Below the pieces are notes generated by a model. It was not told the DNA's origin, did no database searches, and saw only the letters and a program-made list of their open reading frames with translations. Of a stretch of DNA of 64,000 nt, positions 15,671 through 24,202 are shown in pieces; the stretch's first letter is position 1, and every line of letters starts with the position of its first letter. This DNA is from Lama guanicoe (taxonomy: Eukaryota). Position numbers and translations under genes: made by a program. Location: contig MU055753.1 of NCBI GenBank assembly GCA_013239625.1, positions 3,892,153 to 3,956,152 of the forward strand. Direction: 5' to 3'.

Positions 15671-16055
15671 CCCCACTCCAGTCTACCTAGTGCCCCCAAT
15701 ACCTCTGCCTTCCAGTTCCCCACCTTCCCACAGCCACCAAACCTCCCCCATCCCTGCTTTCCTCATGTAAGTGACTTAGTGGACTCGACATTTGAGGATC
15801 CCAGACCTTATCTTACACCCACCCTTCCAGATGATAGGGCCTCTAGGCCCTGGGTAGAGTCCCAGGCTGACCCCCTTGTACCCTGGTCCCTACATAGGGC
15901 CCCCCACCCAGGTCCCTCGAGGGCCAAAAGAGCTAGGAAGTTTGGAGGGCCAGCCTGGAGGCTGAAGCCATCTGATCTGATAATCAGGAGGCATCCCTGA
16001 CCCTCCTGCTCCTGGGAACGGTATCCCTAATACCAGCAGCAACAACTAACTCATG

Positions 16056-16061
16056 TTTATT
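16056..16061 (-). terminator. NHLRC4: Probable NHLRC4 polyadenylation signal AATAAA, inside an ancient L2/MIR-like fragment
   Basis: tttatt in 'catgtttattgagtacctgcta'; the only AATAAA I found between the NHLRC4 stop and the PIGQ promoter. Confidence 0.55.
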
Positions 16062-16872
16062 GAGTACCTGCTACACATCTCCTTACACCGACCCACTTAA
16101 TCCACCCTTTTCTCCACAGGTCCTTGTGATTGGTGCATCCCCTCACCAGCTCCCAGGGACAGGACTAGGCACTGTCTCCTCCCTCTGAAGACCCCTCACT
16201 AGAACTAGAAGCCTGGCTGGGCCCCAGACTCAGTGTAACCCCAAACCTCCCCAACCTTTTCAGCTTCATTTTCGTGCTGCTTTTAAGCAGCAGGAGTCTG
16301 TCCTCACAGGAGGGCTCTCTTACACTTGACCACTGCCCATAACTCTCCCAGCACCCCCACATGAGCTTGCAGCTCTTTGATCCCATCTGCAGAGGAGAAA
16401 ATGAAGGCTCAGTTTCACATGGGAGAAAGAGCCGGCATGGAGGCTTCCAACCCAGCCATGTGTCACCACAGGGCTCCTCCAGGGTGGCCCCTCCTCTGCT
16501 CCCCCCTTACCTCAGCTGGGCCCAGAGAAGCTGCAGGAGACTCGGCACCTGGGGCCTCTGAGGATGGGGGACAGTGAGGGGCCACACCCCTACCCAAACT
16601 ACACTGCCCGGCCCAGCTCAGCCCAGCCATACCCTCCCTGCCTGCCTCTGTCTGATTAGGAGCTAGGACTGTCAAGGAAGTCTGAATCCTCTGTGAGAGA
16701 GACAGGAGGACAGTCCAAGGCCTGGCTCAGAAGTGTCACAAACATGCAGGGTCAGGAAGGCATGGCCAGCAGCCCTCCAGGACCCCACCAACCCTGAACA
16801 TTCCTCCCATCATTGTCCGGGCCCTGGAGGCTGGGACCATGCACAGCTGGTCTCCCCTGCAAGCCCACCAGA

Positions 16873-17786
16873 TCAGGCCAGATCCAAAAGGTACTGGTAC
16901 ACTTTGATGTAGCCATCCCCTGCATCCGCCACCATGAGCTGGCCCTGGGGTGTACAGGCCACACCCAGGGGCTGCCCTAGCCCCTCAGACACCAGGCAGA
17001 TGGGTGCCCTGTCCCGGGGGAACAGGGTCACCTGGCACTGCTGCTCGTCCACCACAATGACACTGCCCGCTGCATCAGTGCACACACCTGCTGGGCTGCC
17101 AAAGCTGTGCCCAGTCAGTCCTCTCAGGGAGCCCAGGGGCTGGCAGGCACTGCCAAACAGCCGCACATCCCCAAACTCTTCACTCACAGCCAGGCCCCCA
17201 TCAGGCCCTGGGCCCACCCAGCAGGGGCCCTCCAGGCCCAGTATGGAGGCAGGGGCCAGTGGCTCTAAGGCAGGGCCCAGTGTGAAGCTGTGCACAGCCC
17301 CGGGCACATAATCTGTCACCAAGACTCGACCAAAGGCATCCACAGCCAGCCCCTGGGGGGCCAAGAAGTTGCCCACTGTCACCCAGCGGCCCTGAGGGGC
17401 TCGGGCAGTGTGCTGGAGTGCACGGACAGTCCCGTGGACGAGGTCACTGACTACCACGAGGCCAGCAGCTGTCACAGCCACATCCTCTGGCACGAAGTCC
17501 CCAGCCCCTGGAATGTGGCAGGGCAGGTGGCAGACAGAGCGTCCCTCAAGGTCCAGCACGTGGATGCAGGGTGCAGTCCCCGCTGTCAGGAAGAGCAGGC
17601 CATCTGGGGAGCAGTGCAGGCCCCGGGGCCCCCCTGCAGCCCCTTCAGGCACCGAGATCCGCCCCAGCAGCTGGGGCTGCCAGGAGTGAACAGGGTCTCC
17701 AGGCAAATCCAGTGTGAGGTGCAGTCCTTGGGGGGTGGCTGATGAACTGGTAGGGGAGGTCCAGGAGGTCGAAGTAGGTGGATGGA
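16873..17786 (-). CDS. NHLRC4: NHLRC4, NHL-repeat beta-propeller ORF (six repeats); start codon unresolved
   Basis: The C-terminal 123 aa (ILGLEGPCWVGPGPDGGLAVSEEFGDVRLFGS...IKVYQYLLDLA*) match human NHLRC4. The frame is open upstream through three more NHL repeats, and the gene sits in the syntenic position between PRR35 and PIGQ. Confidence 0.88.
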
Positions 17787-18029
17787 ATCAAGGTCCAGCA
17801 CGTGGATGCAGGGTGCAGTCCCCCGCTGTCAGGAAGAGCAGGCCATCTGGGGAGCAGTGCAGGCCCCGGGGCCCCCCTGCAGCCCCTTCAGGCACCGAGA
17901 TCCGCCCCAGCAGCTGGGGCTGCCAGGAGTGAACAGGGTCTCCAGGCAAATCCAGTGTGAGGTGCAGTCCTTGGGGGGTGGCTGATGAACTGGTAGGGGA
18001 GGTCCAGGAGGTCGAAGTAGGTGGATGGA
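17546..18029. repeat. Direct tandem duplication: copy 1 at 17546-17786 (241 bp), copy 2 at 17788-18029 (242 bp)
   Basis: Copies are identical by eye except one homopolymer (C4 vs C5 in gcagtcccc(c)gctg), with a 1-nt spacer. Confidence 0.95.
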
Positions 18030-18159
18030 CAGATGTCACAGCCTCAGCCTCTCCAAGCCAGTCCTACAGCTGGGCCAAGTTTGAGGCTACAAGAGAAATA
18101 ACACCCCACCCCATGCCATGCAGCGCTACATTGGTTCCCCTGCACACTTCTTGGCAGGC

Positions 18160-18260
18160 AGGTGACCTCGTTTCACAGATGAGGAGATGGAGGCTTGGGG
18201 CATGAGACGGATTCAACTCAGTTCCACCAGGTCCCAAGTACCAGCCATGGCTTGGGACCC
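18160..18260. mobile_element. MIR fragment
   Basis: cgtttcacagatgaggagatggaggct. Confidence 0.5.
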
Positions 18261-18597
18261 CATTTTCCCAGATGTGGTCCCTGAACACAAATCTGGGAGA
18301 CACACCCCAGGAAGGATACTGTGGGTTTTACTCTGAGGCCCAAATGATCTCAGGGGCACCTAGATGTCTGAGGTGGGGGTTGGGGTGACAGATGAGCGGT
18401 ACTTCTCAGACTCATCTGCCTACGGAACCACTCCTTCAAGCAGGGAAAGTGACCCTTCTTGGGGGCAGCCCAAGCCCTCGCCCATTGCCCCAGATAGCCC
18501 TTGGAGACTTCCAAGCCCTGAAGGGTAAAGCAGGGGCCCTTTCCTAGGCCTCTCTGCCCACTCCCACTGAAAGAGGCTGTGGGGAGGGGTCTCCTAC

Positions 18598-18892
18598 CTG
18601 GAGCCAGTCTCCCTGGTCCCTGCTGGGCATTAGCCTCTGTTGTTGGAAACCACAGCTCAAGGGAGTGGGAGGAGCCACCTCGGCCTGCGGGGGCGGGGAG
18701 GGGCAGGCGGAGCTCTAGCCATGGCTACCTTAGAGCCTCAGCCCAAAGAAGCTCTAAGGAATCCTGTCACTCAGCTGCTAAACCTCCCAGGTGCTCTCCA
18801 GTGTTGCTGCATTCCTGCCTCAGAGCCTTTGCACTGGCCTCTGGAACATTCTTCACTCTGCCCCTGAATAGCTAGATGTAATCCTGGTCCAC
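18598..18892 (-). other. NHLRC4: Candidate upstream NHLRC4 exon (non-coding or decayed coding)
   Basis: Strong donor CAG|GTAGGA at 18597. Its phase matches the strong acceptor tatttctcttgtag| at 18086 in the NHL frame, but that frame carries stops. Confidence 0.45.
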
Positions 18893-20167
18893 CCAGCCCC
18901 TCTCCACAGGGGGCCCAGTGCCTCCACAACCTGCTGAATGTGAATCAAGGGCTTGGTACTCAGGAGACAGCACTCCCACCATCCTCCAGCAGGACCACAA
19001 GGTCAAGACCTCAGGGAAGGAGCTGTGCCCCTGACCTGCTAGCTGGATCACCTACCAGAGTCCAGGGTGGGAGACCTCTAGGGGGTCCGTCCTGCCTCCC
19101 ACAGACTAGGCAGGTTGAGTCCTGTCTCTCTGGTCCTGTTTCTGCACCTATGAAGCAGGGATCATGCCCTCCCCTCTCAGCAGGGACAGGCTTCTGTCTG
19201 TCCAGTGATTAGAAACTGGGGTGCATAGGCACATGGGAGTGTTAACGGGAGGGCAAGGGGTGTCTCCCTCAGACTCAGGACCTGGGGATTCTCCAGACAC
19301 CTCCTGACTCAGCCCACAGCCCCCATAAGCCCATACAGGAAACCCCTGGAAGGTTGGGGGTCAGCCCATGTCTGTGACCCACTCCCTACCTGGCCACCCG
19401 CAGCCCATTTCTGGACACTGCAGAGGGCAGGTTAGTGATGCTATCTGCTGCTCGGCAGAGTTAATGGGGCAGCCGCGGGTCCTGATCCGACTGGCCCAGC
19501 CTGGTCAACCCAGCTCAAGGAGCCAGGCGCAGGCAGGAACCGCACTCCCTAGGGCCATTCCTGGGTGGGCATGGAGGTGTGGCCAGCTCCCGGGGAGAGA
19601 AGCTGTTAGCTGGGTCCGACAGTCCCCCAGGCACCCCTCCCTACCTGTCCCCCGCCTCCCCTTCCAGCCCCCCACTGTGGGAAAGCCAAGTCTGGTGGTG
19701 CTAGGAGGTAGGCAGTGAGCTGTGAAGGCCACCCGATGCCTATCGTGGCTGCAGGGCCTGGCAGGGGCCCAGCAGAGGCCATGCTAGGCGAGCAGCCCCA
19801 GGCCACAGAATGTGGGGGGCACTGTTTCACCACAGGGGGAGCAGCCTCCCACATGAATCAGATATTAGGACTGCCTTGCCAGACGCGGGGGCTGGAGGCT
19901 TTCCTAGGGGCCCCCACCCACCCCCCACATGCAGAAACAGGCCTGACCAGCTCCTAGACCATGCACACCTGCCTCTGTACCCCTCCTTGCTCTGTCCCCT
20001 CCATGGAAAGCCCCCCACTCTCTCCCCAGACTTCGGCCCCCCCAGGAGGTCCCAGTCTACAAGAGGAGGCTGAGGACACTGCCCTCTATGTCCCATCTGG
20101 GGACATTTCCACGGAGGAAGCAGCAAGGGAAGGAGGCCCAGACAGAGTGTGTGAAGGTGGTTTCTAT

Positions 20168-20359: not shown

Positions 20360-22304
<1,945 letters not shown>

Positions 22305-24065: not shown

Positions 24066-24202
24066 TCACCCAGCCCTGGGAGCCACACAGCTGTGCTGCC
24101 TGGTGCCACCACCCACCCCACCTCCCAGCCACATCAGTCACCCAGCCCTGGGAGCCACACAGCTGTGCTGCCTGGTGCCACCACCCACCCCACCTCCCAG
24201 CC
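24066..24202. repeat. Tandem duplication: two identical 65-bp copies (24066-24130 and 24138-24202), period 72
   Basis: tcacccagccctgggagccacacagctgtgctgcctggtgccaccacccaccccacctcccagcc occurs twice. Confidence 0.95.

Follow-up and report, generated by a model that had tools for sequence, protein, structure and literature searches.

The window analysed here is a 64,000-nucleotide stretch of Lama guanicoe DNA (assembly GCA_013239625.1, contig MU055753.1, positions 3,892,153 to 3,956,152), and its minus strand carries an open frame for the NHL-repeat protein NHLRC4 in which the only ATG lies close to the stop codon. This raises the question of where translation of the protein begins. We consider it probable that camelid NHLRC4, a predicted six-bladed propeller, is translated from a CUG codon at position 17712 of the window, since placental mammals likely lost the AUG and the helical N terminus that precede this site in other vertebrates.

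The NHLRC4 frame and its gene

16873..17712, minus strand: likely NHLRC4 coding sequence, CUG to TGA, 279 aa, predicted six-bladed NHL propeller
17710..17712, minus strand: CUG with A at –3 and G at +4, the codon predicted for human by Ivanov et al. 2011
17653..17673, minus strand: N-terminal strand, residues 14 to 20 from the CUG (strand E61-67 of the alpaca model), likely completing blade 6
17242..17244, minus strand: ATA (Ile157), site of the annotated human start Met
16933..16935, minus strand: sole ATG in frame from 18086 to the stop codon, 20 codons short of it
16056..16061, minus strand: AATAAA, candidate polyadenylation signal

The stop-to-stop frame at 16873-17787 (minus strand) is open for 304 codons and contains all six NHL repeats together with the preceding strand QLLGRISV, as the original prediction, made from this DNA by itself, had read it. 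That prediction also placed the only in-frame ATG about 20 codons from the end and gave the codon of the human start Met as ATA; both are found, at 16935 and 17244-17242, respectively. In 200 mononucleotide shuffles of 16001-19000, the frame averaged 178 codons and never exceeded 297; this is a weak control, and it is orthology that decides. The frame shares 302 of 303 residues with Vicugna pacos XP_015094573.1 and 294 of 303 with the Camelus NHLRC4 proteins XP_014420681.1 and XP_031303431.1, and Camelus ferus NHLRC4 stands in the list of closest named matches at 97%; judged by sequence, the gene in the window is camelid NHLRC4. Pfam family PF01436 (NHL) is detected in the camelid protein with an E value of 7e-12 (45.2 bits against a curated cut-off of 20). 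In Camelus ferus, a Val occupies the position of the one in-frame Met of the window, leaving its propeller entirely free of Met downstream of the CUG.

PIGQ lies downstream of NHLRC4 on the same strand, with matches at 12402-11761, 9877-9743, and 9603-9469, and was placed by means of the PIGQ part of an NHLRC4-PIGQ fused model. On the other side, a coding exon of the upstream gene, which we take to be PRR35, lies at 20372-20737 (minus strand) and matches the N-terminal part of one fused model at 78%.

RefSeq holds NHLRC4 models of 280 to 451 aa for camelids, equids, ruminants, and bats, and many primate and rodent records of 123 to 139 aa; a partial human record has 303 aa (EAW85801.1). The short human form of about 123 aa starting with MLGLEGPCW, which the original prediction had cited, has its counterpart in several primates, and the claim that the protein is more than twice that size is supported by the 279 aa from the CUG and by the longer RefSeq models for other placentals. 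The camelid RefSeq entries annotate the full propeller, as in the window frame; unlike the window, they carry no duplication, and their spliced AUG start is probably wrong.

Predicted structure and conservation of the propeller

The AlphaFold model of the alpaca protein (326 aa, one residue different from the window frame) begins with 57 residues of pLDDT below 50, followed by 24 strands, with a pTM of 0.77. Foldseek matched it to the NHL domain of TRIM2 (7qrv; E value, 7e-18), and its residues 59 to 323 align with TRIM3 (7qrw) with a Z score of 31.6 and an rmsd of 2.6 over 255 residues. The NHL domains of TRIM2, TRIM3, and TRIM71 (7qrv, 7qrw, and 8j72) consist of six four-stranded blades like the NHLRC4 model, at 21 to 24% identity, and their N- and C-terminal ends are described as sharing blade 6 (PMC9634614). 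NHLRC4 is likewise predicted to form a full propeller in which each of the six blades has four strands and the N-terminal strand belongs to blade 6. The complete propeller proposed in the original prediction, which had suggested modelling the product, is thereby supported at the level of predicted structure: the strand number, the whole-domain match to TRIM3, and the similarity to closed six-blade NHL domains agree with it. Because the N-terminal strand likely completes blade 6, any start codon must lie upstream of this closing strand.

Among 12 placental sequences picked by lineage, the mean pairwise identity (two pairs of close relatives omitted) was 0.78 for residues 22 to 156, 0.77 for residues 157 to 273, and 0.61 for residues 1 to 21; these are protein identities, not dN/dS values, from databases that favour intact frames. 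Ten of 11 sequences align to the camelid protein without gaps, the exception being a gopher model. Blades 1 to 3 are, at the sequence level, conserved as well as the annotated half, and the frame upstream of the human Met, whose retention the original prediction had proposed to check, is kept in these sequences. Of 115 placental entries, 112 carry the motif, and their residue at the human Met site is M in 52, L in 29, V in 23, and I in 8; M is overcounted because some records write M at their own first codon. No Met occurs up to this site in 40 of the 45 proteins that cover blade 1 to the end.

The CUG codon at 17712

The CUG at 17712 opens a product of 279 aa. It is seen at the DNA level in the window and in human mRNA, and elsewhere it is deduced from residues: among placental models that reach the site, 38 of 39 have Leu, the residue before it points to a purine at –3 in all 39, and the residue after it to a G at +4 in 37, although this set is redundant (many ruminants, equids, and bats) and a Leu residue need not mean a CUG codon. 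In equids, a Met stands one codon before the Leu, and RefSeq begins 280-aa proteins there.

The sequence upstream of the CUG behaves differently from the propeller. The horse leader aligns to different camelid frames in turn, as expected of noncoding DNA; in ruminants, the frame stays that of the camelid over some 19 codons before the CUG. Counted from the Leu, placental models start at 22 distinct positions, a scatter that resembles gene-finding programs settling on whichever AUG is available. A conserved coding signal thus precedes the first in-frame AUG, and its limit is set by a frame break and by an in-frame TAG at 18066-18064. The CUG, one of three candidates in the original prediction, emerges as the best-supported start by its context and its conserved Leu, and it is likely the best, and probably the sole, start of the propeller. 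Human NHLRC4 has an AUG at the annotated site, whereas camelids have none, from which exclusive use of the CUG in camelids would follow.

The following course of events would fit this arrangement. The mRNA would consist of two exons with a noncoding leader; scanning ribosomes would mostly bypass a weak AUG in exon 1, and some would initiate at the CUG. Ribosomes that miss the CUG would next encounter seven ATGs in other frames before the late in-frame one, leaving the CUG as the only route to the propeller, with low output. Translation from this codon would be the consequence of the likely placental loss of the upstream AUG and the helical N terminus.

Non-placental orthologues and a probably lost N terminus

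A Tasmanian devil query retrieved orthologues from marsupials, birds, reptiles, amphibians, catshark, and paddlefish, mostly of 336 to 375 aa; monotremes, as well as named afrotherians and xenarthrans, were absent from the matches. In 45 of 46 full-length non-placental orthologues (a count that omits shorter and PIGQ-fused matches), a Met stands 63 or 64 residues before the Leu of the CUG site. The additional N-terminal region has an identity of 0.53 among 11 non-placentals, on a par with the first propeller half there. In a turtle model, it comprises helices 5 to 38 and 47 to 72 (pLDDT, 55 to 87), a two-helix hairpin of about 70 residues; the Leu of the CUG site is Leu64/65 and lies inside helix 2 of the non-placental orthologues. 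An ESM Atlas search with the turtle N terminus gave a single low match (0.76) and was uninformative. Several bird models fuse the N terminus and first blades of NHLRC4 to PIGQ, which may reflect read-through transcripts or model errors.

Of the 11 placental models long enough to compare, one has a Met at the 63- to 64-residue distance, and none contains the hairpin sequence. A frameshift-tolerant search found no remnant of the hairpin in the camelid leader, the score being below 139 of 145 background windows; with no trace detectable there, the argument for hairpin loss is a phylogenetic one throughout. Its simplest reading is that the AUG and the hairpin were lost after the split from marsupials, an internal codon taking over. 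The ancestral NHLRC4 was thus likely longer still than the original prediction supposed, AUG started, and provided with a helical N terminus that the prediction overlooked. Since the CUG leucine is internal in non-placental orthologues, initiation at the CUG probably arose in placentals, in contrast to the published pan-vertebrate view; additional use of the CUG in birds is possible. The good context of the codon could be inherited, since non-placentals have D or E on both sides of the Leu.

On balance we lean toward the full scenario, in which the placental stem lost the AUG and the 63-residue hairpin, an internal Leu CUG whose context was already ideal became the only start, equids later regained an AUG one codon away, the human 123-aa form is a half-propeller rather than the true product, and the pan-vertebrate view is wrong. 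No published account of a placental switch from AUG to CUG was found in the open-access literature searched, and we regard this as a modest addition.

Alternative readings of the locus

18598..18630, minus strand: 3' end of exon 1, likely noncoding; by-eye match to human mRNA at 22 of the last 27 nt
18597-18596, minus strand: exon-1 donor GT, directly after 18598
18630, minus strand: weak-context ATG, absent from the human leader
18030..18088, minus strand: likely acceptor AG (18088-18087) and exon-2 leader; by-eye match to human mRNA at 18 of 23 nt after the junction
18065-18064, minus strand: AG of the RefSeq camelid model, 23 nt inside the likely exon 2

Placental NHLRC4 might be decaying, its AUG lost and its frame barely translated, with the window copy further damaged by duplication. 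The missing AUG and hairpin of the placental models would fit such decay, as would the broken state of some of these models, the absence of NHLRC4 from the accessible PhyloSET and RiboSET tables of Fedorova et al. 2022 (PMC9789052), and a literature search that met NHLRC4 in no title or abstract of the papers listed. However, 77 to 78% identity extends gap-free over 250 residues in primates, rodents, bats, horses, and artiodactyls, while the leader beside it shifts frame, and a genuine duplication would still leave the downstream copy in the window with its CUG and complete frame. We regard decay as improbable, and the recent inactivation that the original prediction had offered as its alternative fares poorly against the even identity across placentals and the frame intact from the CUG.

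Broken or short models are those of hippopotamus and Phyllostomus (both labelled "LOW QUALITY"), Diceros, and titi monkey, and some lineages may be able to do without the gene; together with one ENA record, these models look frameshifted or cut, and lineage-specific loss of NHLRC4 is possible.

Initiation in camelids at the exon-1 ATG (18630), with splicing to 18063 and the 326-aa RefSeq form as product, is about as doubtful as decay. Four camelid records have precisely this N terminus, and the donor GT and the AG exist at the positions needed, so that the spliced start named in the original prediction is equivalent to the RefSeq camelid model. Human mRNA, however, joins the donor corresponding to 18598 to the acceptor at 18088-18087 and contains no AUG there (by eye); with this acceptor, 23 nt further upstream, ATG 18630 opens a 27-codon out-of-frame ORF ending at 18036, which makes the model unlikely. 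The two AGs are similar in pyrimidine content (0.63 versus 0.58), and sequence alone cannot pick between them. The extra 47 residues of the 326-aa form are disordered in the model, and the scatter of placental start sites also argues against it.

Least probable of all is another start, at a different near-cognate codon (GUG 18039, a second CUG four codons before the main one, or the GUG after the closing strand) or on a read-through transcript of the upstream gene: such in-frame codons are present and one automatic model joins the upstream gene to NHLRC4, but GUG 18039, a further candidate of the original prediction, sits in the leader that changes frame between orders, the Leu of the upstream CUG is not retained in ruminants, a start at Val21 would lose the closing strand, and longer forms sought with the turtle N terminus appeared in 4 of 47 candidates, all of them bird PIGQ-fused models.

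The tandem duplication

17546..18029: 243-bp two-copy tandem duplication, the copies differing by a single additional G in the upstream one
17788-18029, minus strand: upstream copy, extra G in the run 17820-17824, ending in a stop
17953..17955, minus strand: duplicate CUG in the upstream copy, which would yield only a 55-codon product

With good probability the 243-bp duplication, absent from camelid RefSeq proteins, is an assembly artefact, although it may be a private allele. Of 2,671 words, 58 (2.2%) occur in the two-copy allele alone, and the top 14 of the 24 runs listed contain 0.95 to 0.97 of the words, shares that weakly fit the absence of a duplication; five RNA runs and one possible RNA run, with shares of 0.05 to 0.29, were set aside as evidence. 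If real, the duplication would add a 55-codon CUG ORF upstream and leave the 279-codon frame whole. Exact repeats of at least 60 bp within 3 kb occur twice in 464 kb, both in the window, and with just two such repeats we rejected the notion that the assembly is generally prone to duplication artefacts. The second lies 6 kb away at 24066-24202 (72-bp unit, 1.9 copies, 100% match, non-simple).

Relation to TRIM-NHL proteins and to genes with non-AUG starts

Searches of the camelid, turtle, and catshark proteins gave only NHL-type Pfam matches and no RING, B-box, or filamin family; with neither RING nor B-box among them, NHLRC4 would not be a TRIM-NHL E3 ligase. The RNA-binding face is reported as strongly basic in TRIM71 and mixed in TRIM2/3 (PMC9634614), whereas the camelid propeller is acidic (12 K+R versus 23 D+E, counted over the whole domain) and those of turtle and catshark are near neutral. 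The contrast with TRIM71 makes protein binding more likely than RNA binding; from fold and whole-domain composition, NHLRC4 would be a stand-alone propeller binding proteins through its top face, probably not an RNA binder. The ancestral hairpin may have had an oligomerization role.

As described for EIF4G2 and R3HCC1, NHLRC4 has a near-cognate codon in favourable context as its predicted start, and AUGs in other frames that would block initiation further downstream. EIF4G2 initiates exclusively or predominantly at a non-AUG codon (PMC9082881), and this is shown or widely accepted, whereas the CUG start of NHLRC4 is predicted. Unlike in genes of the EIF4G2/R3HCC1 type, the CUG of NHLRC4 probably began as an internal Leu codon rather than by mutation of an AUG, and the comparison with non-placentals would provide a worked example of an exclusive CUG start derived from an internal codon once an N-terminal domain had been lost. 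If this is true, human NHLRC4 is annotated at less than half its length, variants in 156 coding codons are misread as UTR, and 123-aa constructs express half a propeller. Lacking an AUG where the human start Met lies, the camelid copy offers a clean test; the impact is limited by how little the function of NHLRC4 has been studied.

Prior work

The core of this proposal, a full propeller started at the CUG, was already predicted in 2011: Ivanov et al. gave the same codon for human FLJ36208/NHLRC4 (Supplementary Dataset 1, entry 7), with a CUG product of 28.6 kDa against an AUG product of 12.6 kDa, and noted pan-vertebrate non-AUG initiation (PMC3105428). Gene and codon agree with ours, but the orthologue models here show a conserved upstream AUG outside placentals. 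According to Fedorova et al. 2022, NHLRC4 is one of 28 genes that GENCODE v35 did not yet annotate as non-AUG initiated (PMC9789052). NHLRC4 was not found in one supplement of PMC11317171 or in the accessible text of the review PMC9082881, and searches for NHLRC4 with CUG, or for "NHL-repeat-containing protein 4," returned no literature.

A metagenome scan for orthologous DNA gave 175 pattern matches, of which 0 were confirmed, and a whole-library profile search returned mostly long multirepeat proteins and added two full-length orthologues. NHLRC4 does appear, at the gene level, in the RiboSET_ext localization sheet of Fedorova et al., a set drawn from the top 5,000 Trips-Viz extensions (PMC9789052); supplementary file 13 of the same work lists its Human Protein Atlas location as mitochondria.
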